A DNA stretch of 21,272 nt from a virus (taxonomy: Duplodnaviria; Heunggongvirae; Uroviricota; Caudoviricetes): IMG/VR virus record IMGVR_UViG_2778261501_000004, positions 1 to 21,272 of that record. One strand, given 5' to 3'. Both the position numbers and the translations under genes were made by a program. The stretch's first letter is position 1, and every line of letters starts with the position of its first letter. The notes under the pieces were generated by a model that saw only the letters and a program-made list of their open reading frames with translations, did no database searches and was not told the origin of the DNA. Positions 1 through 21,272 of the stretch are shown here, piece by piece.

Positions 1-981
1 TTATAACGTCACTCCGCCTTTTAGTGGATTCAGAGCGACGGCGTTCTGCAGGTAGTCAGGCGCAAGGTGCGCATAGGTCATTGTCTGCTGAATGCTCGCA
101 TGCCCCAGAATCTGTTGCAGTGCAATTATGTTGCCCCCATTCATCATGAAATGGCTTGCGAATGTATGCCGCAGAATGTGGGTTGCCTGATTGGGAGGTA
201 TATCAGGTTTCACTCTGCGTAAAATCCCGCAAAACTTCTCATAATCTACCTTGAACAATTTGGCGCTGGCCTCCTCTTTAACTTTTTTCTCCAGTTCCTC
301 AGAAATCGGCACTGTTCGCTTTTTACCGTTTTTGGTTTTCAGGAAGGTAACCCTGCAACTTGTAATCTGTGCTGGTTTTAGCGTGGCAACTTCCGTCCAT
401 CTTCCTCCAGTGCTCAGACATAAAAGCGCGACAAGTAAGTCATCACCAGTCAAAACATTTAGCAGTTTTTCGATTTCTGCTTTTTCCAGGAACGTCATTT
501 CAGGGTTAGCCTCCGTCAGTGGCGGCAGTCCGTGAATTGGGTGTTGCCCGGAAAATTCATCCAATTGAATTAATTTTGTGAACATGCCGGATAATCGGTA
601 CATGTCGCGGTTTATCGTTGCAGCACTGATGCCATCACGTAGTCGCATGGAGCGATAATCCATCAAAGCCCTTTTGTTCATCCGGCTCACTGGTATATCA
701 CCTATGCCGCTGATGGTTTTGAGCAGATGATTAAACTCTTTTGTCCCATGCTCGTGGTTTTGCCCGTGGTATTTCCACCAGATGTCGAGCAATTCTGTCA
801 AAGTTCGGCGGTCTGCTCGCTGGCCTCCCCATTCTTTCTGACTGGCATTGGCGATTGTGTATCGCTCAAATGCTAGTGCTTCAGCTTTTCTTTCAAATTT
901 CCTGCGGATGCGTTTTCCGTCGCGACCGCGAGGTCTAATGTCCACTTCATAGCGACCATCATCGAGCTTCTTAATTGCCAT
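1..981 (-). CDS. int: Tyrosine integrase of P2/186 type, int. The ORF extends to 1011, but the ATG at 981 has a GGAGGG Shine-Dalgarno and gives an MAIKKLDDGRYEVD N-terminus.
   Basis: N-terminus MAIKKLDDGRYEVDIRP and the C-terminal HxLRHTFA…Y catalytic region typical of P2 Int. Stop TAA at positions 1–3. The upstream ATG at 1011 has no RBS. Confidence 0.85.
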   Translation of the reverse strand: MAIKKLDDGRYEVDIRPRGRDGKRIRRKFERKAEALAFERYTIANASQKEWGGQRADRRTLTELLDIWWKYHGQNHEHGTKEFNHLLKTISGIGDIPVSRMNKRALMDYRSMRLRDGISAATINRDMYRLSGMFTKLIQLDEFSGQHPIHGLPPLTEANPEMTFLEKAEIEKLLNVLTGDDLLVALLCLSTGGRWTEVATLKPAQITSCRVTFLKTKNGKKRTVPISEELEKKVKEEASAKLFKVDYEKFCGILRRVKPDIPPNQATHILRHTFASHFMMNGGNIIALQQILGHASIQQTMTYAHLAPDYLQNAVALNPLKGGVTL

Positions 982-1050
982 AAGAAAGCCCTCCGGCGCT
1001 GTATTCACCATCTTGGTGGCAAATGGTGAAAATGTAATTTTTATATAGAG

Positions 1051-1344
1051 TTAGCCAATCCTTTTCGCGGAGTGGTCGGATTCTGTTGACTCTGGCCCAA
1101 TGTGCGCGAGAGCCGGTGCGATTTGTCCCGCTTCCGGCGCTGTTTTATCTGTCATGAGCCATAGTGTGTATTTTTGGAACTGAGGTGCATTGGTGACCTG
1201 CAACACAACTTGGATGCCAGGGTCTTGATGGCCTCCTTCGTAATTCTTTAGCGTTCCTAACGCTATACCGCTGATTTCACTGAATTTTGCTTGAGTTAGC
1301 CCTTCCGATTGTCTTATTACTCTTAATTTCTGTGCGATATTCAT
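1051..1344 (-). CDS. C: Immunity repressor C, a P2-type HTH repressor of 97 aa. The ORF track extends it to 1527, but the ATG at 1344 fits the P2 C size.
   Basis: Internal Met followed by an HTH segment, MNIAQKLRVIRQSEGLTQAKFSEISGIALGTLKNYEGG. Sits next to int and is transcribed the same way as int, as in P2. Confidence 0.7.
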   Translation of the reverse strand: MNIAQKLRVIRQSEGLTQAKFSEISGIALGTLKNYEGGHQDPGIQVVLQVTNAPQFQKYTLWLMTDKTAPEAGQIAPALAHIGPESTESDHSAKRIG

Positions 1345-1479
1345 TTGACATAGTCCTGACTTAATGACTATATTCCCCGAAAAGGTCATTAATCCAGAAC
1401 CTTTTCGGGCGTGAGTCCAGCGCCGCTTAAACGGTTCCAAGCGGTTTTTAAGGGGCTGGATCCTATGAGGGTAACATAG
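1345..1479. promoter_or_regulatory. Pc/Pe lysogeny–lysis switch region. Candidate Pe has -35 TTGACA at 1345–1350 and -10 TATATT at 1369–1374. Nested inverted repeats are candidate C/Cox operators.
   Basis: TTGACA, an 18-nt spacer, then TATATT reading toward cox. One inverted repeat is TTAATGAC (1361–1368) with GTCATTAA (1385–1392). A second 10-bp inverted repeat is CCCGAAAAGG (1376–1385) with CCTTTTCGGG (1400–1409). Confidence 0.45.
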
Positions 1480-1752
1480 ATGGAAGTTAATGATTATGTG
1501 ATTAAGTACCCGCTTGATGCGGTACATGCGGAAAAGTTTGCAGATTTATTGGGTAAACCAAAAACCGCAGTTACAGAAATGATAAAGGCTAACAAGCTAC
1601 CGGTTATCGAGCTTCGAGATCCAAATAAGCCGAAGGCCCGCGCCGGTGAGAAATGGGTTTTCATTCCAGAGTTTAATCGCGCTGTACGTGAGGCGTTTTA
1701 TAACCGACCGGTTGAACAGCGTGATGCATGGCTTTTGTGGATGGGGTTGTGA
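1480..1752 (+). CDS. cox: Cox-like excisionase and transcriptional repressor of Pc.
   Basis: 90-aa protein facing away from C. Shine-Dalgarno GAGGG 8 nt upstream. The motifs KLPVIEL…DPNKPKARAGEKWVFIPEFN resemble P2 Cox (KLPVIDM…GRAGEYWVYLP). Ends …WLLWMGL like P2 Cox (WLMWLGL). Confidence 0.8.
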   Translation: MEVNDYVIKYPLDAVHAEKFADLLGKPKTAVTEMIKANKLPVIELRDPNKPKARAGEKWVFIPEFNRAVREAFYNRPVEQRDAWLLWMGL

Positions 1753-3509: not shown

Positions 3510-5784
3510 AGCCTCCGGGCGTTTTGTCCCTCCGTCAGCATTTGCCGCAGGCACCGGTAAGGCGTTTACCGGTGCTTATGCATGGAACGCGCCACGCGAG
3601 GCTGTCGGGCGCGAAAGACCCCTTACACGTGACGAGATGCGTCAGGTGCAAGGTGTTTTATCCACGATTAACCGCCTGCCTTACTTTTTGCGCTCGCTGT
3701 TTACTTCACGCTATGACTACATCCGGCGCAATAAAAGCCCGGTGCACGGGTTTTATTTCCTCACATCCACTTTTCAGCGTCGTTTATGGCCGCGCATTGA
3801 GCGTGTGAATCAGCGCCATGAAATGAACACCGACGCGTCGTTGCTGTTTCTGGCAGAGCGCGACCAGTATGCGCGCCTGCCGGGGATGAATGACAAGGAG
3901 CTGAAAAAGTTTGCTGCCCGTATCTCATCGCAGCTTTTCATGATGTATGAGGAACTCTGCGATGCCTGGGTTGATGCACATGGCGAAAAAGAATCGCTGT
4001 TTACGGATGAGGCGCAGGCTCACCTCTATGGTCATGTTGCTGGCGCTGCGCGTGCTTTCAATATTTCCCCGCTTTACTGGAAAAAATACCGTAAAGGGCA
4101 GATGACCACGAGGCAGGCATATTCTGCCATTGCCCGCCTGTTTAACGATGAGTGGTGGACTCATCAGCTTAAAGGCCAGCGTATGCGCTGGCATGAGGCG
4201 TTACTGATTGCTGTCGGGGAGGTCAATAAAGACCGTTCTCCTTATGCCAGTAAACATGCCATTCGTGATGTGCGTGCGCGCCGCCAGGCAAATCTGGAAT
4301 TTCTTAAATCGTGTGACCTTGAAAACAAGGAAACCGGCGAGCGCATCGACCTTATCAGTAAGGTGATGGGCAGTATTTCTAATCCTGAAATTCGCCGGAT
4401 GGAGCTGATGAACACCATTGCCGGTATTGAGCGTTACGCCGCCGCAGAGGGTGATGTGGGGATGTTTATCACGCTGACCGCGCCGTCAAAGTATCACCCG
4501 ACACGTCAGGTCAGAAAAGGCGAAAGTAAAACCGTTCAGCTTAATCACGGCTGGAACGATGAGGCATTTAATCCAAAGGATGCGCAGCGTTATCTCTGCC
4601 GCATCTGGAGCCTGATGCGCACGGCATTCAAGGATAATGATTTACAGGTCTACGGTTTGCGTGTCGTCGAGCCACACCACGACGGAACGCCGCACTGGCA
4701 TATGATGCTTTTTTGTAATCCACGCCAGCGTAACCAGATTATCGAAATCATGCGTCGCTACGCGCTCAAAGAGGATGGAGACGAAAGAGGAGCTGCGCGA
4801 AACCGTTTTCAGGCAAAACACCTTAACCGGGGCGGTGCTGCGGGATATATCGCGAAATACATTTCAAAAAACATCGACGGCTATGCACTGGATGGTCAGC
4901 TCGATAACGACACCGGCAGGCCGCTGAAAGACACTGCAGCGGCTGTTACCGCATGGGCGTCAACGTGGCGCATCCCGCAATTTAAAACGGTTGGCCTGCC
5001 GACAATGGGGGCTTACCGTGAACTACGCAAATTGCCGCGCGGCGTCAGCATTGCTGATGAGTTTGACGAGCGCGTCGAGGCTGCACGCGCCGCCGCAGAC
5101 AGTGGTGATTTTGCGTTGTATATCAGCGCGCAGGGTGGGGCAAATGTCCCGCGCGATTGTCAGACTGTCAGGGTTGCCCGTAGCCCGTCGGATGACGTTA
5201 ACGAGTACGAGGAAGAAGTCGAGAGAGTGGTCGGCATTTACGCGCCGCATCTCGGCGCGCGTCATATTCATATCACCAGAACGACGGACTGGCGCATTGT
5301 TCCGAAAGTGCCGGTCGTTGAGCCTTTGACTTTAAAAAGCGGCATCGCCGCGCCTCGGAGTCCTGTCAATAACTGTGGAAAGCTTACCGGCGGTGATACT
5401 TCGTTACCGGCTCCCACACCTTCTGAGCACGTCGCAGCAGTGCTTAATCTGGTTGATGACGGTGTTATCGAATGGAATGACCCGGAGGTCGTGAGGGCGC
5501 TCAGGAGCGCATTAAAATACGGCCTGAGAACCTCAAACCGTCAGCAAAGAAACGGAAGCCCGTTAAAACCGCATGAAATTGCACCATCGGCCAGACTGAC
5601 CCGGTCGGAAAGAATGCAAATTACCCGTATCCGCGTTGACCTTGCTCATAACGGTATCAGGCCGCAGCGATGGGAGCTTGAGGCGCTGGCGCGTGGCGCG
5701 ACCGTAAATTATGACGGGAAAAAATTCACTTATCCGGTCGCTGATGAGTGGCCGGGATTCTCAACAGTAATGGAGTGGAAATGA
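3499..5784 (+). CDS. A: Replication initiation protein A, a rolling-circle nicking endonuclease. The ATG at 3499 gives 761 aa, the same as P2 gpA.
   Basis: Large basic protein at the gpA position. The HxH-type motif 'HWHMMLF' and the Tyr-rich 'AAGYIAKYISKNIDGY' segment fit the rolling-circle Rep superfamily. The track's ORF starts earlier at a TTG at 3457. Confidence 0.85.
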   Translation: MAVKASGRFVPPSAFAAGTGKAFTGAYAWNAPREAVGRERPLTRDEMRQVQGVLSTINRLPYFLRSLFTSRYDYIRRNKSPVHGFYFLTSTFQRRLWPRIERVNQRHEMNTDASLLFLAERDQYARLPGMNDKELKKFAARISSQLFMMYEELCDAWVDAHGEKESLFTDEAQAHLYGHVAGAARAFNISPLYWKKYRKGQMTTRQAYSAIARLFNDEWWTHQLKGQRMRWHEALLIAVGEVNKDRSPYASKHAIRDVRARRQANLEFLKSCDLENKETGERIDLISKVMGSISNPEIRRMELMNTIAGIERYAAAEGDVGMFITLTAPSKYHPTRQVRKGESKTVQLNHGWNDEAFNPKDAQRYLCRIWSLMRTAFKDNDLQVYGLRVVEPHHDGTPHWHMMLFCNPRQRNQIIEIMRRYALKEDGDERGAARNRFQAKHLNRGGAAGYIAKYISKNIDGYALDGQLDNDTGRPLKDTAAAVTAWASTWRIPQFKTVGLPTMGAYRELRKLPRGVSIADEFDERVEAARAAADSGDFALYISAQGGANVPRDCQTVRVARSPSDDVNEYEEEVERVVGIYAPHLGARHIHITRTTDWRIVPKVPVVEPLTLKSGIAAPRSPVNNCGKLTGGDTSLPAPTPSEHVAAVLNLVDDGVIEWNDPEVVRALRSALKYGLRTSNRQQRNGSPLKPHEIAPSARLTRSERMQITRIRVDLAHNGIRPQRWELEALARGATVNYDGKKFTYPVADEWPGFSTVMEWK
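5350..5369 (+). other. Putative origin of replication (nick site) inside gene A: GCGCCTCGGAGTCCTGTCAA.
   Basis: P2 ori lies inside the 3' part of A. This 20-mer matches my recollection of the P2 nick-site region. Position and memory only. Confidence 0.35.
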
Positions 5785-6695: not shown

Positions 6696-7634
6696 ATGCC
6701 AACTGTAGTGTCGCTTTTTTCCGGGTGTGGTGGTTCTGATGCAGGAGTCTTGAAGGCTGGGTTTGATGTTCTAATGGCGAATGACATTTTACCTTACGCT
6801 CGTGATGTGTATTTGGCTAACCATCCAGAAACTGATTATGTTTTGGGTGATGTCTCCACTATTGAATCGTTTCCATCTGCTGAACTGCTGGTTGGTTGCT
6901 ATCCCTGTCAAGGTTTTAGCCAAGGTGGAGTTCGAAAAGCTGATAGAAAAATTAATACGCTATACTTAGAGTTTGCAAGAGCTTTAAGAATAGTTAAGCC
7001 AAAAGCGTTCATTGTTGAAAACGTTTCTGGCATGTTGCGAAGTAACTTTGAACATTTGTTGAAAGATCAGTTCAAGGTTTTCGAAGAGGCTGGTTACAGA
7101 GTTAAATCTAAAATTCTAAATGCTTCTCATTTTGGTGTTGCTCAGGATCGTAAGCGCATTTTTATTGTTGGCATACATGAGAGATTTGGAGTTGATTTTT
7201 CGTTTCCAGTCGCGACTCATGGCGAAGGATTGAAAAGAGTGACTACTATCCGTGATGCGATAGGTTCGTTACCGGAATGGCCTGTTGGAGAGTTTTATGA
7301 TGCCGATTTCCATTGGTATTATTTATCAAGAAATCGCCGTCAGGACTGGGATCAAATCTCAAAAACCATAGTTGCTAATCCAAGGCATATGCCTTTACAT
7401 CCAATTAGTCCAACTCTTATAAAGTTAGGTCCAGATAAATGGCAATTTACATCAAATGAACGTGCACGGCGTTTTAGTTTTCGTGAGGCTGCTTATCTTC
7501 AAGGATTTAGTAATTTAGTTTTTCCTGAAACAGAGCGAGCATCCATGAATATGAAATATACAGTTGTCGGAAACGCCGTACCGCCCCCTTTATTCGAAGC
7601 GGTAGCGCGTTCATTACCTGATATTTGGGATTAA
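6696..7634 (+). CDS. DNA (cytosine-5)-methyltransferase, a compact 312-aa enzyme.
   Basis: Motif I FSGCGG, motif IV PCQGFS (catalytic Cys), motif VI ENV, motif VIII QDRKRIF, motif X GNAV. A variable target-recognition domain lies between VIII and IX. Confidence 0.9.
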   Translation: MPTVVSLFSGCGGSDAGVLKAGFDVLMANDILPYARDVYLANHPETDYVLGDVSTIESFPSAELLVGCYPCQGFSQGGVRKADRKINTLYLEFARALRIVKPKAFIVENVSGMLRSNFEHLLKDQFKVFEEAGYRVKSKILNASHFGVAQDRKRIFIVGIHERFGVDFSFPVATHGEGLKRVTTIRDAIGSLPEWPVGEFYDADFHWYYLSRNRRQDWDQISKTIVANPRHMPLHPISPTLIKLGPDKWQFTSNERARRFSFREAAYLQGFSNLVFPETERASMNMKYTVVGNAVPPPLFEAVARSLPDIWD

Positions 7635-8560
7635 CTCAACACATAATCCATAGCCACTAAGTCATCAACAAACGTTAGATTGTCTTGGTGGTTTATCTGT
7701 GGATATTTTTTAGTCAGATTTACTAGTCTAAGTCTATCAACAAATATTGCAGCACCAAAATCACTCCTGTGAGCCCAGTCGCGGTTATGCCATCTTAAAT
7801 CTTGTGGAAGAAAATAATATGTTGACCATGGATGTAAGACAGGAAGCAAATTCCACAATTTAGCCGGTGTGGCCTCAAGTTGTTTTGCTACCCATTCAGT
7901 TTTTGAACATCCACATTGAGCAAGAGCAAGAGGTATAGACTCACGATTATCTCCCATATCATGCCAAGCGAGTATATCAATTCCTCCATCTCCCCTGTCA
8001 TTTGGTTTGAAATCTTCAATTGAAAAATTAGCTTTACATCTGAAATCTTGTGCTATTTTAGTTAACTTATCAAAGAGTAAGCCAGTGTAGTGACCTGAAT
8101 TACCTGCGCTAGCCCAACAGTGTTTAACTGTTGCTCCTTCAGGCATGAGGGCTTGAAATATGGGATAGCTTATTTTCTCAAATGCACTTGTAAATATGTC
8201 ACGGTGACTATTTTCTATATATTTTATATTTGCACAGGCTAAGAGTGCTATGTATAGTTTTTCATTTTGATTGTAATCAGCAATATTATGCTTTCTTAAG
8301 AATAATGTGTCTCTGTCATCAGAAAAATAAAAGGGGTAATCATCACCGAAAAGGCTAATTCTTGTGTCAATGAATGTCGCTGCAAAATTCCATTTATCGT
8401 CAGAATACCCGCGTGACTTTGGATTTGCTTGAGACCTAAAGAGGCTTGCTAGATCTCCTCTACTAAAGCATTTGTCTGTATTTACTGTAGCCCATAACTC
8501 TAAATAGTCGCCCCATAAATATGGCTCGTTATCGGGTAATGAGTCCATGTGAAAAATCAT
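7631..8560 (-). CDS. Putative restriction or effector nuclease with an Mrr-cat-like PD-(D/E)xK core and an N-terminal domain of unknown function (309 aa).
   Basis: The C-terminal half has GDGGIDILAW…(15 aa)…LALAQCGCSK, resembling the Mrr_cat motifs (D-G-G-I-D… and Q-x-K). Its ATG overlaps the upstream ParB-like stop (TAATG). Its stop overlaps the MTase stop convergently (TTAA). Confidence 0.6.
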   Translation of the reverse strand: MIFHMDSLPDNEPYLWGDYLELWATVNTDKCFSRGDLASLFRSQANPKSRGYSDDKWNFAATFIDTRISLFGDDYPFYFSDDRDTLFLRKHNIADYNQNEKLYIALLACANIKYIENSHRDIFTSAFEKISYPIFQALMPEGATVKHCWASAGNSGHYTGLLFDKLTKIAQDFRCKANFSIEDFKPNDRGDGGIDILAWHDMGDNRESIPLALAQCGCSKTEWVAKQLEATPAKLWNLLPVLHPWSTYYFLPQDLRWHNRDWAHRSDFGAAIFVDRLRLVNLTKKYPQINHQDNLTFVDDLVAMDYVLS

Positions 8561-9639
8561 TATTCATCTTCCTCACGGATGCTTTCAATTTGTTTTTTAA
8601 TTTTACGCGCTATAGATAATATTTCACTCGAACGATATTCGTGATTTTCTGTGAAAGAGTGCGTGTTGAGAAGCATATCCCAAACAACTCTTAGTCGAGA
8701 TTCTGCTTGGTCTAGAGCTTGATCCAAAGCCTCTTCATGACCATTTGTATATAAATAGGCTTCTTCAATGTTTTTAGACTTTATGAGGTTATCTATTGCT
8801 GCTTCATTGGCAACTATTGTTGAAAGATTTTTGATCTTGCGACTTTCACCAATGATAGTATCACCCTGTTGATCTCTAACAAAGAACCAAGCAAAAAGCT
8901 TCTCAAGGTTTTCCTCTTTCAGGTTTTTAGCAGATAAATCTTTTCTATCATCTAAGCCTAACCAGTCTGTAATGTTAGTATATCCAAGAGCTGTTGTTAT
9001 GTAGGAAAAATCGACATCATTCTCACTCATATGCAAATTATAGAAGTTTTTATCAGCAGCGGTTTCATATAATTTGAGTGAAGTTAATAAAAGGCCGACG
9101 TAATAAGATTTACTGCCAATTTCTTTAGCTAATGACTTTAAAAGAGATTCTTTGTCTGCACCTTTGTAGAAAGTTTCACTAAGCTCCTTAAGATACTTAG
9201 CTTTAGAAAGTGCATCCCATTCTTTCACACCAGTAATGTGTCTATATCCGATATAACGTAACACATCTTCACGTCTTGTGTAGACGAGACAAGGTAATTT
9301 AGTCGGTTTATAAGTAGCATCGTCCTGAATTAGTTGAATGCTTTTTTCTTTTCTTTTAGGTGGTAAAAGTTCGCTATTGAGCAACTTTACGGCAGCAAGG
9401 CGACGGTTACCCTCAACTACAACATATTTTTTCCCGGAACTAACCACTAAAAGAGGTTCTCCGGGAAAGTAATCTTGTTCCCCTATGGACAGCATCAAAT
9501 CTTGTACACTTTCGTCATCAAGCATTTCTTCAATGACGGCATTTTCAGATCCAGCCCTATCGTTTAACCGATAGAAACGTGGGTTTTCAGGATCAAACTC
9601 TAGATCTTCCGTGTTTATGTATTTGATTTCGTTGCTCAT
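8560..9639 (-). CDS. ParB/Srx N-terminal-domain protein with a 250-aa helical C-terminal extension (359 aa).
   Basis: IKYINTEDLEFDPENPR…LMLSIGEQDYFPGEPLLVV…KYVVVEGNRRLAAVKLL matches the ParB-N fold signature (NPR… then GxRRxxA). First gene of a two-gene leftward operon. Confidence 0.7.
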   Translation of the reverse strand: MSNEIKYINTEDLEFDPENPRFYRLNDRAGSENAVIEEMLDDESVQDLMLSIGEQDYFPGEPLLVVSSGKKYVVVEGNRRLAAVKLLNSELLPPKRKEKSIQLIQDDATYKPTKLPCLVYTRREDVLRYIGYRHITGVKEWDALSKAKYLKELSETFYKGADKESLLKSLAKEIGSKSYYVGLLLTSLKLYETAADKNFYNLHMSENDVDFSYITTALGYTNITDWLGLDDRKDLSAKNLKEENLEKLFAWFFVRDQQGDTIIGESRKIKNLSTIVANEAAIDNLIKSKNIEEAYLYTNGHEEALDQALDQAESRLRVVWDMLLNTHSFTENHEYRSSEILSIARKIKKQIESIREEDE

Positions 9640-9830: not shown

Positions 9831-9849
9831 GGCGAGGCGGGGAAAGCAC
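9831..9849. other. cos site: GGCGAGGCGGGGAAAGCAC, the 19-nt cohesive-end sequence of P2.
   Basis: Matches the P2 cos 19-mer as I recall it. Lies between the cargo and the Q terminator as in P2 (…old-cos-Q). G-rich terminase-binding flanks at 9850–9990. Confidence 0.7.
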
Positions 9850-18318: not shown

Positions 18319-18748
18319 TGCCGTCACGGTGCTGAAAACTAACCCCGATATGCTGCGGATATTCGTGGATAACGGGAGTATTGCCTCCACACTGGCGACG
18401 TCGCTGTCATTCGAAAAGCGTTACACGCTCAATGTCATTGTGACCGACTTTACCGGTGATTTTGACCTGCTCATCGTGCCGGTGCTGGCGTGGCTGCGGG
18501 AAAATCAGCCCGACATCATGACCACCGACGCAGGCCAGAAAAAGGGATTCACGTTTTATGCAGACATCAACAATGACAGCAGCTTTGATATCAGCATCAG
18601 CCTGATGCTGACCGAGCGCACGCTGGTCAGTGAGGTGGACGGCGCACTGCATGTGAAGAATATCCCGGAACCCCCGCCGCCGGAGCCGGTCACCCGCCCG
18701 GTGGAGCTTTATATCAATGGCGAACTGGTGAGCAAGTGGGATGAATGA
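18281..18748 (+). CDS. R: Tail completion protein R.
   Basis: 155 aa, the same as P2 gpR. AGGA Shine-Dalgarno. Confidence 0.85.
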   Translation: MLKPDSLRRALTDAVTVLKTNPDMLRIFVDNGSIASTLATSLSFEKRYTLNVIVTDFTGDFDLLIVPVLAWLRENQPDIMTTDAGQKKGFTFYADINNDSSFDISISLMLTERTLVSEVDGALHVKNIPEPPPPEPVTRPVELYINGELVSKWDE

Positions 18749-19193
18749 GTTTAAGCGTTTTGAAGACCGGCTGACCGGACTGATTGAGTCGCTGTCACCG
18801 TCAGGGCGTCGGCGACTGAGCGCCGAACTGGCAAAACGTCTGCGACAGAGTCAGCAGCGTCGGGTGATGGCTCAGAAAGCCCCGGACGGCACACCCTACG
18901 CGCCACGCCAGCAGCAGAGCGCCAGAAAAAAGACTGGTCGTGTTAAGCGAAAAATGTTTGCGAAACTTATCACCAGTCGTTTTTTGCATATCCGCGCCAG
19001 CCCGGAGCAGGCATCAATGGAATTTTACGGCGGGAAGTCGCCGAAAATCGCCAGTGTGCATCAGTTCGGTCTGTCGGAAGAAAACCGGAAAGACGGTAAG
19101 AAAATTGATTATCCGGCGCGTCCTCTGCTCGGCTTTACCGGTGAGGATGTGCAGATGATTGAAGAGATTATCCTGGCTCACCTCGACCGTTAG
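18741..19193 (+). CDS. S: Tail completion protein S.
   Basis: 150 aa, the same as P2 gpS. 8-nt overlap with R. Confidence 0.85.
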   Translation: MNEFKRFEDRLTGLIESLSPSGRRRLSAELAKRLRQSQQRRVMAQKAPDGTPYAPRQQQSARKKTGRVKRKMFAKLITSRFLHIRASPEQASMEFYGGKSPKIASVHQFGLSEENRKDGKKIDYPARPLLGFTGEDVQMIEEIILAHLDR

Positions 19194-19225
19194 TTGTGCC
19201 ATTCCTGACACCTCATCGTCACATT

Positions 19226-19247
19226 GCCGCCGGTATGACCCGGCGGC
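19226..19247 (+). promoter_or_regulatory. Perfect 8-bp stem hairpin in the S–V intergenic (late promoter PV) region: GCCGCCGG-tatgac-CCGGCGGC.
   Basis: Inverted repeat at 19226–19233 and 19240–19247. No T-tract follows, so it is not a classical intrinsic terminator. Confidence 0.3.
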
Positions 19248-19259
19248 ATCCTTCCCGTT

Positions 19260-19832
19260 ATGAACACTCTCGCAAATATTCAGGAACTCGCGCGCGCACT
19301 GCGTAACATGATCCGCACCGGCATTATCGTCGAAACCGACCTTAACGCCGGTCGCTGCCGTGTGCAGACCGGCGGCATGTGCACCGACTGGCTTCAGTGG
19401 CTGACCCATCGCGCCGGTCGTTCGCGCACATGGTGGGCACCTTCCGTGGGGGAACAGGTGCTGATTCTGGCCGTGGGCGGTGAACTCGACACGGCATTCG
19501 TTCTGCCGGGGATTTATTCCGGCGATAACCACGCGCCGTCTGCGTCGGCGGATGCCCTGCATATCCGTTTCCCTGACGGGGCGGTGATTGAGTATGAACC
19601 CGAAACCAGTGCACTTACGGTAGCGGAGTTCTCCATCAGCCTGGCTACCGGTCGGGCAGATATTTACACGGAAACACCGGTCAAAGTGTCAGGCTTTAAG
19701 CGTGTCATAGACGAGCAGGACTGGACAATCACTAAGGTGACACATTTTCTGAATAATAGCGGCTTCACGACGTCCTTAGAGCTTGAGGTAAGGCTTTCTG
19801 ATGTGGAGTACGAAACCGAAGATGATGAGTGA
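19260..19832 (+). pseudogene. V: Truncated baseplate spike gene V (N-terminal part, about 122 aa) fused in frame to an unrelated 68-aa C-terminal segment, possibly the 3' end of tail gene D. This marks a deletion junction.
   Basis: P2 gpV is 211 aa. Here the gpV-like sequence runs to …YEPETSALTV at about 19620, then diverges. The next gene is ogr, and genes W through D are absent. Confidence 0.65.
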
Positions 19833-19851
19833 TGTGTTTTATTTTATCTGT

Positions 19852-19880
19852 TTGTTTTATAAGGATAAATTAACTAAAAT
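19852..19880 (+). promoter_or_regulatory. Candidate ogr promoter: -35 TTGTTT at 19852–19857, 17-nt spacer, -10 TAAAAT at 19875–19880.
   Basis: AT-rich stretch immediately upstream of ogr with good spacing. Confidence 0.4.
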
Positions 19881-19914
19881 GGCAACATCAACAAAACCGG
19901 AAGAGGTGCTCGCG

Positions 19915-20133
19915 ATGTTTCATTGTCCTTTATGCCAGCATGCCGCACATGCGCGTACAAGCCGCTATATCACTGACACGACAAAAGAGCGTTATCACCA
20001 GTGCCAGAACGTGAATTGCAGCGCCACGTTCATTACTTATGAGTCGGTACAGCGATACATCGTGAAGCCGGGAGAAGTCCACGCCGTGAGGCCGCACCCG
20101 TTGCCGTCAGGGCAGCAAATTATGTGGATGTGA
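19915..20133 (+). CDS. ogr: Late-gene transcriptional activator Ogr (zinc-finger).
   Basis: 72 aa starting MFHCPLCQHAAHARTSRYITDTTKERYHQCQNVNCSATF, with a Cys4 zinc finger, the same as P2 Ogr. AGAGG Shine-Dalgarno. The track's ORF starts upstream at 19801. Confidence 0.85.
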   Translation: MFHCPLCQHAAHARTSRYITDTTKERYHQCQNVNCSATFITYESVQRYIVKPGEVHAVRPHPLPSGQQIMWM

Positions 20134-20143
20134 TCACAAAAAT

Positions 20144-20170
20144 AGCCCCTCAGTTGAGGGGCTTTATTTA
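20144..20170 (+). terminator. Rho-independent terminator after ogr.
   Basis: Stem AGCCCCTC-agtt-GAGGGGCT followed by TTATTTA. Confidence 0.7.
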
Positions 20171-20176
20171 TGGTCG

Positions 20177-20195
20177 ATGTGGACGCTATGTGGAC
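20177..20195 (+). repeat. Tandem direct repeats ATGTGGAC at 20177–20184 and 20188–20195, with a third ATGTGGA at 20122–20128 inside the ogr 3' end. Candidate integrase arm-type sites of the attR arm.
   Basis: Exact 8-mer repeated with 11-bp periodicity right at the prophage right end between ogr and the host gene. Confidence 0.35.
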
Positions 20196-20261
20196 AGTGC
20201 TTGATATAAATCCATTTATATCATCAGGTTAGGTGCTTTTTTGTGACACCATCCCTGTCTT

Positions 20262-20288
20262 CCCCCACATGATGTGGGGGTTTTTTTT
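20262..20288 (+). terminator. Strong rho-independent terminator, probably host-derived (3' end of the gene upstream of fieF) or part of the att core.
   Basis: Stem CCCCCACA-tga-TGTGGGGG followed by T8. Confidence 0.65.
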
Positions 20289-20316
20289 ATCCTCAATTTG
20301 CCTGCTGCTTAATGCA

Positions 20317-20369: not shown

Positions 20370-21272
20370 ATGAATCAATCTTATGGACGGCTGGTCAGTC
20401 GGGCGGCGATTGCTGCGACGGCGATGGCTTCGTTGCTATTGCTGATTAAAATTTTTGCATGGTGGTATACCGGGTCGGTGAGTATTCTCGCCGCGCTGGT
20501 GGATTCGCTGGTGGATATCGGCGCGTCGTTGACGAATTTACTGGTGGTGCGATATTCCCTGCAACCTGCCGACGATAATCACTCGTTTGGTCACGGTAAA
20601 GCAGAGTCCCTCGCGGCGCTGGCGCAAAGTATGTTTATCTCCGGTTCGGCACTATTCCTGTTTTTGACGGGTATTCAACATCTGATATCTCCAACACCGA
20701 TGACAGATCCAGGCGTCGGGGTTATCGTGACAATTGTGGCGCTAATTTGTACGATTATCCTTGTCTCGTTTCAGCGTTGGGTGGTGCGCCGGACGCAAAG
20801 CCAGGCGGTGCGGGCTGATATGCTACATTACCAGTCTGATGTTATGATGAACGGCGCAATTCTGCTGGCGCTGGGGTTGTCCTGGTACGGCTGGCATCGC
20901 GCCGATGCTCTGTTTGCATTGGGAATCGGCATCTATATTTTATATAGCGCGTTACGCATGGGATATGAGGCGGTACAGTCATTACTGGATCGCGCATTGC
21001 CTGATGAGGAACGGCAAGAAATTATTGATATCGTGACTTCCTGGCCGGGTGTTAGCGGCGCTCACGATCTTCGCACGCGGCAGTCAGGGCCGACCCGCTT
21101 TATTCAGATTCATTTGGAAATGGAAGACTCTCTGCCTTTGGTTCAGGCACATATGGTGGCGGATCAGGTAGAGCAGGCTATTTTACGGCGTTTTCCGGGA
21201 TCGGATGTAATTATCCATCAGGACCCCTGTTCCGTCGTACCCAGGGAGGGTAAACGGTCTATGCTTTCATAA
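20370..21272 (+). CDS. fieF: Cation-diffusion-facilitator family ferrous-iron/zinc efflux transporter FieF (YiiP). Chromosomal gene, complete at 300 aa.
   Basis: Six transmembrane helices plus the C-terminal cytoplasmic domain. Begins [29 protein letters not shown]… like E. coli FieF. The track's ORF starts at the TTG at 20352; the ATG at 20370 has a Shine-Dalgarno. Confidence 0.9.

Follow-up and report, generated by a model that had tools for sequence, protein, structure and literature searches.

P2, WPhi, fiAA91-ss and the prophage found between cpxP and fieF in SF-088 share one gene order and carry the full V-W-J-I-H-G-(Z/fun)-FI-FII-E-T-U-D block. Much smaller P2-like elements are also described, such as the PR-X remnant of Escherichia coli K-12, made of ogrK and the pseudogene yegZ. 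P2 heads and tails assemble separately, and a heteroimmune helper leaves the C repression of a resident prophage in place. In phage lambda, Int-dependent deletions start at att via recombination with secondary sites. Defective P2-like elements that keep defence genes have been reported (PMC13586616).

Here we analyse a stretch of 21,272 nucleotides, called the window below, which holds a P2-like prophage of E. coli and spans int (1-1011, minus strand) to fieF (20370-21272, plus strand). It has the gene order of P2, WPhi, fiAA91-ss and the SF-088 prophage, with ~95 to 98% nucleotide identity over the shared genes. It also resembles the intact relatives in its attachment site and in the type of its cargo (methyltransferase, ORF and ParB-N protein). 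In contrast to them, it lacks most of the V-to-D block. The deletion itself is ordinary prophage decay; what stands out is that the break in V recurs to the exact nucleotide in many unrelated P2 remnants and that the break in D links the window to the K-12 remnant.

Anatomy of the V-D junction

The ORF at positions 19260-19832 (plus strand) translates into 190 amino acids and joins gpV codons 1 to 121 (V nt 1-363) in frame to the last 69 gpD codons (D nt 955-1164). The V part (19260-19622), encoding gpV residues 1 to 121 (…YEPETSALTV), is 97 to 98% identical in nucleotide sequence to gpV of P2-like phages. It retains the OB-fold domain (PF04717, Phage_base_V, residues 19-86, E = 1.9e-20), and the C-terminal spike domain PF18715, which full-length gpV homologues carry, was not found by Pfam in this ORF. 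The D part (19623-19832) comprises the last 69 codons and the stop of D; it keeps the reading frame of D and forms the end of the V ORF. A preliminary description of this DNA placed the end of the gpV match near residue 122 and took what follows for a foreign C terminus. The tail (AEFSISLATGRADIYTETPVKVSGFKRVIDEQDWTITKVTHFLNNSGFTTSLELEVRLSDVEYETEDDE) belongs to the phage itself, however: it corresponds to the final 69 residues of gpD, in the frame of gpD, whose C terminus reads AEFSISLATGRADIY…EDDE. The Phage_GPD domain (PF05954) was not found by Pfam in the fusion ORF, where 69 of the 387 gpD residues are left. The V(1-121)-D(319-387) fusion is in frame by chance and has no expected function; the fully read V-D joins preserve the reading frame at D955 and D697 and break it at D846.

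Megablast comparison with phage genomes gave matches of 97 to 98% on both sides of the join. Window positions 18700-19630 match R, S and V, with the match ending within V at 19627-19630, while positions 19620-20291 match the 3' end of D, ogr and the att-proximal region, so that the alignment of region 19600-19840 to the 3' end of D, suggested earlier as a check, does return D. The V and D segments overlap by 11 nt because their similarity is imperfect. Ungapped comparison with the V of WPhi and the D of fiAA91-ss places the join between V nt 363 and D nt 955, ACGGTA/GCGGAGTTC (here and below, a slash marks the join), or, in longer context, …GCACTTACGGTA/GCGGAGTTCTCC…. The trinucleotide GTA at 19620-19622 (plus strand) is common to V and to the GTA allele of D, and the crossover lies directly 3' of A19622. 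D alleles ending in …GGTGTA/ are present in intact prophages.

The deletion amounts to 13,062 bp relative to P2 and to 12,273 bp relative to fiAA91-ss (from its coordinates), more than the ~10 kb first estimated. The genes W, J, I, H, G, Z/fun, FI, FII, E, T and U are lost, together with D nt 1-954 and V nt 364-636. The V and D matches and the ORF list agree with the earlier reading of a single junction within V and of the absence of W through D. The statement that the whole tail and baseplate cluster is missing stands for W to D, but the tail-related genes X, R and S are kept upstream of V. Downstream of D, a spacer of 82 nt with the ogr promoter region (19833-19914, plus strand) aligns side by side with P2 23955-24036, a region with annotated -35 and -10 elements. 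It is followed by ogr, encoding the late-gene activator of 72 amino acids (19915-20133, plus strand), which was recognised by nucleotide match and, in the called genes, by the Pfam domain Ogr_Delta. The -35/-10 region being conserved, ogr is indeed retained with its own promoter, as had been proposed.

Remainder of the prophage

The integrase at the left prophage edge carries the Pfam domains Int_N and Phage_integrase and is 52% identical to P2 Int (BLASTP). attL lies outside the window; in intact relatives, the int gene adjoins cpxP. The attR core of 47 nt (20245-20291, plus strand) is identical to attL of intact cpxP-fieF prophages and shows no relation to the P2 att core; the host gene fieF forms the right flank. 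Two Int arm-type repeats, ATGTGGAC and ATGTGGACA, were read from the sequence in the P arm (20177-20196, plus strand); the arm-type consensus is tgTGGaCa (PMC3448106).

The early genes C, cox, B, orf80-83, A and orf91-like are open and of normal length when the ORF list is compared with the annotation of intact relatives. The same is true of the late genes between 10019 and 19193, namely Q and P on the minus strand and O, N, M, L, X, Y, K, lysA, lysB, lysC, R and S on the plus strand. Gene A contains an exact match to the nick motif of the P2 origin, GCGCCTCGGAGTCCTGTCAA (5350-5369, plus strand), the nick being annotated at 29892 in the P2 record. The 19-nt cohesive end of cos (9831-9849, plus strand) is an exact 19-mer identical to that of P2. 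Between gene A and cos, the hot-spot cargo (6696-9639) consists of three ORFs: a C5 cytosine methyltransferase (6696-7634, plus strand; Pfam DNA_methylase, PADLOC DruM/MTase_II), a 309-aa ORF (7631-8560, minus strand), and a 359-aa ORF (8560-9639, minus strand) whose homologues in SF-088 and EM22-18-53 are annotated as ParB N-terminal-domain proteins. The PADLOC matches among the cargo are DruM/MTase_II and PD-Lambda-5_A/PDC-M38A, the latter type corresponding to the ParB-N homologue.

The P2 gene order, the high identity over early and late genes and the exact cos and ori motif assign the element to the P2-like phages (Peduovirus). Its full-length ORFs and these exact motifs confirm that the immunity, replication, head, packaging and lysis genes, cos and the cargo have been kept. 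The virion gene set is incomplete, W through most of D and the 3' part of V being absent. What is missing is the V(3')-to-D(5') block only, and neither baseplate, fibres, sheath, tube nor tape measure is possible. Tails cannot be made by the element alone, which is therefore a defective prophage early in its decay.

V nucleotide 363 is a recurrent breakpoint

V nt 363 (…CACGGTA/AGCGG) is a deletion hot spot in P2-like prophages. It is joined to ~17 downstream partners, 8 of them read in DNA, and serves once as the right-hand partner. The joins read in DNA are V363×D955 (the window and loci L013-L016), V363×D846 (L003), V363×D697 (L004), V363×ogr nt 19 (L017-L022, at two chromosomal sites), V363×G nt 445 (L010 and L011), V363×T nt 2288 (L038), V363×H nt 1095 (L040; in L041, V is truncated likewise and the genes are laid out in the same way) and a join at the homologous site in the genome of a divergent P2-like phage (L023 and L024). 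The reverse arrangement, with V363 on the right, was read in DNA in strain 1916D18 (P nt 1455×V363, L039). Nine more partners of V363 were deduced from fusion proteins. When the protein collection was queried with the fusion, the many truncated or fused gpV proteins all diverged directly after …EPETSALTV. Mapping of their tails on an intact phage gave as partners D955, D697, D938 and ogr nt 19, as well as FI nt 382, 700, 827 and 1060, T nt 2134 and 2288, I nt 119, J nt 105 and, tentatively, a site in H.

The complete genomes point to the same nucleotide. A search with V nt 204-523 showed that 72 of 1,576 records had no intact copy, and all three truncated V records among those listed (evenly spaced) break at nt 363, two keeping the left part and one the right. 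The left segment, V nt 204-363, was found at 1,790 places in these genomes and the right one, V nt 364-523, at 1,654. Fusion proteins with at least 121 V residues fall into ~17 junction types at nt 363 versus ~7 across the remaining 273 nt, a survey of V copies of at least this length, in which V363 is compared only with sites further 3' in V. The junction V363×ogr19 was not found as one contiguous piece in complete genomes. IMG/VR was likewise scanned for …ACGGTA with a next base other than A and gave no match; defective prophages are presumably outside that collection. The literature covered on the K-12 remnant, on P2 Int core cleavage and on P2 deletion hot spots, which does not extend to key older P2 papers, reports no hot spot in V.

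The junction of the window offers a case of recurrence at both ends. At L015, V363×D955 occurs in a prophage with P2-type immunity inserted at yegQ, an att site other than that of the window. The two copies have 20 differences in the V part, including one at 6 nt from the junction, and 6 in the D part. These differences and the other att site argue for an independent origin, and, judging from these sequences, V363 and D955 have probably been joined twice. Some of the recurrences could correspond to one junction spread by homologous recombination between prophages.

Tail-less relatives and shared boundaries

A search of 5,426 complete E. coli genomes did not find the V363×D955 junction of the window. 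Only two contigs carry the exact fusion protein, one in an NCBI record (assembly GCA_002510415.1) and one in a Logan assembly, and a search for the contexts of the exact Ogr protein returned intact prophages only. Two finished genomes share the V cut, OHT76-1 with V363×D846 (out of frame) and 23CRST025 with V363×D697 (in frame), as does GCA_943790545, which shares the D breakpoint of the window as well. Like the window, these three and EM22-18-53 have TA/ junctions throughout; they differ from it in the D breakpoint (nt 846 or 697), in the left partner (R nt 91 in EM22-18-53) or in the locus.

The tail-less relatives each have their own junction and many have further deletions; compared with the window, several of these remnants show extra deletions or IS insertions. 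Additional deletions are found at L015, L017-L019, L026, L027 and L040, with a terminase truncated at L015 and L019 and an O-S fusion at L017. Reduction goes furthest in P276M, of which int-C'-A'-ogr is left (primes marking truncated genes), and in EN-1077, reduced to Q-P'-ogr. The relatives are thus a series of progressively decayed remnants.

Several boundaries are shared between remnants with different partners. The K-12 pseudogene yegZ starts at D nt 955, the same nucleotide as the D part of the window, and its join, AAAAAATAAGCCCGTGTA/GCAGAGTTC (in an alternative extent, …AAAAAATAAGCCCGTGTA/GCAGAGTTCTCC), connects the left half of the P2 att core to D955. D697 is joined by V363 in 23CRST025 and by R nt 91 in EM22-18-53. 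The left partners of ogr nt 19 are V363, P2 coordinate 1586 in P (EN-1077) and a site in A (P276M), and P2 coordinate 2117, within P, is joined to two different right partners. Since V363 is usable as either partner, some of the shared right boundaries may stem from two successive V363 events: a first join V363×Y would be followed by a second, X×V363, leaving X/Y.

Sequence rule at the joins

About 22 of 24 distinct parental sites, both partners counted, end in TA, which accounts for 4.5% of P2 dinucleotides. Positions -5 to -3 are G-rich, with 1.79 G versus 0.73 at random TA sites (P < 1e-5). When partners that share short and long stretches of sequence are compared, the crossover on the V side falls directly after A363, and the last four bases of the left partner are kept in every DNA-read product where the 4-mers of the two partners differ. 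A minority of joins in the same remnants do not use TA (O202×S32 and FI813×D1127) and are ordinary short-homology deletions. The position-weight matrix built from 22 sites does not single out V363, whose leave-one-out rank is ~256 of 67,160 positions.

A number of simple sources of breakage were considered and rejected. A pseudo-origin for gpA does not fit, the nick motif (GCGCCTCG/GAGTCC, present in gene A of the window) being unrelated to CACGGTA/AGCGG. The single-strand DNA fold at V363 is no better than that of shuffled sequence (z = 0.28), which argues against a hairpin or cruciform, and there are no local repeats at the site. For a dimeric cutter or a serine recombinase, dyad symmetry would be expected around TA, and it is not significant (P = 0.09 and 0.30). 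A gyrase-type stagger of 4 nt predicts mixed left and right 4-mers in the products and is disfavoured because the left 4-mer is always retained. The only Chi sites of the window are at 20495 and 20507, both in fieF, and there are none in the prophage.

Candidate mechanisms

Of the mechanisms considered, a site-specific nick or double-strand break at V363 is the one we tentatively put forward, although we hold it to be somewhat less likely than not. A nuclease, a topoisomerase or replication run-off would generate a …GGTA-3' end, which would then be joined to its partner via 2 to 5 nt of microhomology. The resemblance of the partners to V363 fits such a break, as it is limited to the sequence left of the junction and peaks right beside it, with GGTA present in 4 of 12 V363 partners versus ~7% expected. 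The fixed crossover after A363 also agrees with it, and the existence of both left-retaining and right-retaining products is what a two-ended break would give. However, no fitting enzyme emerges, the gpA motif being unrelated and hairpin, repeat and significant dyad symmetry being absent, and the near-absolute need for TA on both partners exceeds what ordinary microhomology joining demands.

Recombination by a P2-family integrase on secondary (pseudo-att) sites appears rather unlikely, yet it has precise points in its favour. Here the enzyme would cut after TA at V363 and at the partner and exchange strands in a lambda-like manner. The genuine P2 att core is itself a left partner in K-12, where GTGTA/AGGG is joined to D955, and V363 (CACGGTA/AGCGGAATT) matches this core at 10 of 16 central positions, which ranks it in the top ~0.15% of the P2 genome. 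Both partners are broken to the exact nucleotide, the DNA-read cases with differing 4-mers all retain the left sequence up to TA, and the integrase is the sole recombinase common to all these prophages. On the other hand, ~100 other positions in P2 resemble the core no less than V363 does, so that V363 is not the best pseudo-att site of P2 Int. Furthermore, the same junction types occur despite differing Int and att specificities (cpxP-fieF, yegQ and pflB), with the window itself encoding an Int only half identical to that of P2 and using an unrelated core; the partner sites show no consistent similarity right of the junction, and the pseudo-sites have no arm sites.

Whichever of these enzymes may act, a broader possibility can be formulated, and we offer it as a conjecture with somewhat less than even chances. 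P2-like prophages may be dismantled by a sequence-directed cut-and-join after TA in a G-rich context (…GGNTA/), with V363 as the dominant site and usable as either partner, and successive events would lead from intact prophages to tail-less ones and then to remnants of the K-12 type. The activity, integrase or nuclease/recombinase, would be an undescribed one.

Origin of the tail-less prophage

The reading that we consider likely is that a P2-like prophage located between cpxP and fieF lost 12 to 13 kb by one illegitimate V363×D955 deletion, and that it is defective and at an early stage of decay, with a break that is not random and falls on the V363 hot spot. V363 is cut repeatedly and rejoined to downstream sites also ending in TA after G-rich sequence, D955 being one of them, and the deletion took the genes for baseplate, tail fibre, sheath, tube, tape measure and hub at once, together with the Z/fun cargo. 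We infer that the deletion reflects recent decay rather than adaptation.

The preliminary description favoured a domesticated or satellite-like element, in which the tail-less form would have been selected, either because its own heads are combined with tails from a co-resident P2-like helper or because it is kept for its defence cargo. The gene content is compatible with this, since int, C, cox, B, A, ori, cos, the terminase, capsid and lysis genes and ogr are intact and defence-type cargo is present. The separate assembly of P2 heads and tails and the described defective P2-like elements with conserved defence genes point in the same direction, and mobilisation of the tail-less element by a helper is physically conceivable. 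However, this interpretation is unsupported, because there is no conserved tail-less lineage and the relatives lose more. The architecture does not recur in a conserved form in many genomes: complete genomes do not contain the junction, the fusion protein is confined to two contigs, and the other tail-less relatives, each with its own junction, are decaying further. No gene for helper derepression or exploitation beyond P2's own ogr was found in the window, the content of which is that of an ordinary P2-like phage plus the cargo, with no function assigned to the 309-aa ORF. A heteroimmune helper would not lift the repression by the resident C, and a genome of ~20.3 kb, ~60% of the length of P2, would doubtfully be packaged stably in a head of P2 size. 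Altogether, we regard a satellite or domesticated origin as improbable.

A rearrangement that moved the tail genes elsewhere, or a mis-assembly, might be suspected from the draft status of the source assembly but is very improbable, given that the NCBI assembly and an independent Logan assembly of a sequencing run show the same contig structure, that analogous junctions exist in finished genomes and that the 3 nt common at the join are too few for assembler collapse.

Taken alone, the deletion in the window is a routine case of a defective prophage, and its value is mainly for annotation: the V ORF is a V-D fusion, and tails are impossible. The wider interest of the early-decay reading lies in the position of the break. 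Prophage decay is usually seen as random deletion, and here the breakpoints recur exactly across unrelated strains, loci and integrase types. The breakpoint at D955 explains the boundary of the textbook K-12 remnant. If a specific activity is involved, it would provide a testable mechanism through which bacteria or rival elements could disable P2-like prophages yet spare ogr and the cargo, and the formation of the V363 junction would give a simple assay at the scale of a PCR.

Comparison with known systems

Capsid-forming satellites are the first point of comparison. Like cf-PICI, which have their own capsid and borrow tails, and like P4, the window combines capsid and packaging genes with the absence of tail genes. 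It differs from them in having no conserved lineage and no recognised helper-exploitation genes, and it derives from an ordinary P2-like phage by a recent deletion.

The Int-dependent deletions of lambda resemble those at V363 in having one nucleotide-exact fixed end, a variable second end and very short shared sequence. Their fixed end is att, whereas that of the P2-like prophages lies inside a structural gene, where Int is a candidate only.

The closest parallel is the K-12 PR-X remnant, beside cyaR/trhP. Both it and the window have a D fragment from nt 955 (…GTA/GC(G/A)GAGTTCTCC), followed by ogr and attR. The window has this D955-ogr-attR arrangement of the ogrK-yegZ type, and neither its att-core partner nor its loss of the other phage genes. 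The left partner is V nt 363 in the window versus the left half of the P2 att core in K-12, where the whole stretch between int and D nt 954, both included, has been lost, while ~19.6 kb of prophage upstream of the join remain intact in the window. The K-12 remnant lies at yegQ and the window prophage at fieF, with different att cores, and the two have the same nucleotide of D as their boundary.

Deletion sites in P2-like remnants

The 3' segment of gene D fused to V in the window begins at a nucleotide that is also used in E. coli K-12, where the pseudogene yegZ starts at the identical position of D (window 19620-19832 compared with NC_000913.3 2167602-2167820). There, yegZ is part of the cryptic prophage PR-X, and the P2 att core contributes its left half as the partner on the left (…AAAAAATAAGCCCGTGTA|GCAGAG), with a diverged P-arm copy ahead of this half.

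Across P2-like remnants, most of the internal-deletion sites that have been joined end in TA after a G-rich sequence (loci L003, L004, L007, L015, L017-L022, L026, L027 and L038-L041), and several sites were reused with differing partners: P2 coordinate 2117 in P, nucleotide 91 of R, nucleotide 697 of D and nucleotide 19 of ogr. The junctions O202×S32 and FI813×D1127 (left partner × right partner, numbered by nucleotide within the gene) are ordinary short-homology deletions, a minority class among the remnant junctions. The S-V spacer of the window, which is 66 nt long (19194-19259) and lacks P2 orf30 (compared with P2 9368-10307), contains the hairpin GCCGCCGGTATGACCCGGCGGC. The loop TA of this hairpin is itself a deletion partner, joined to P2 coordinate 2117 in two remnants (L015 and L016).

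A search of both strands for Chi (GCTGGTGG) found none in the prophage of about 20.3 kb (window 1-20291), and two sites, 12 nt apart, were found in the adjoining host gene fieF (window 20495 and 20507).

Start sites of the repressor and ogr

The repressor ORF on the minus strand (window 1051-1527) has 158 open codons. Its helix-turn-helix domain occupies residues 65-113, and relatives have homologous C genes with annotated lengths of 97-99 aa; the true start of the window repressor is probably internal to the ORF. At the other end of the prophage, an ATG at 19801, within the D segment, opens a frame of 110 codons that continues into ogr (window 19801-20133), and the 110-aa product of this longer frame (Ogr_Delta) was called by one gene-prediction program. 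The conserved start of ogr is at 19915.

Cargo of the tin/old hot spot

Minimal P2 remnants at yegQ have kept hot-spot cargo beside ogr and fragments of Q and P. This cargo comprises a reverse transcriptase family gene and a retron Ec48 effector in one of them (L026, NZ_CP159209.1) and ORFs without annotation in L017-L022, which is consistent with the retention of cargo as prophages decay. In the window, the tin/old hot spot (6696-9639) encodes a DruM-like C5 cytosine methyltransferase, a 309-aa ORF with no match in Pfam or PADLOC, and a 359-aa ORF that matches PD-Lambda-5_A at its N-terminus. Intact relatives (SF-088) and the tail-less relative EM22-18-53 contain the same type of cargo.
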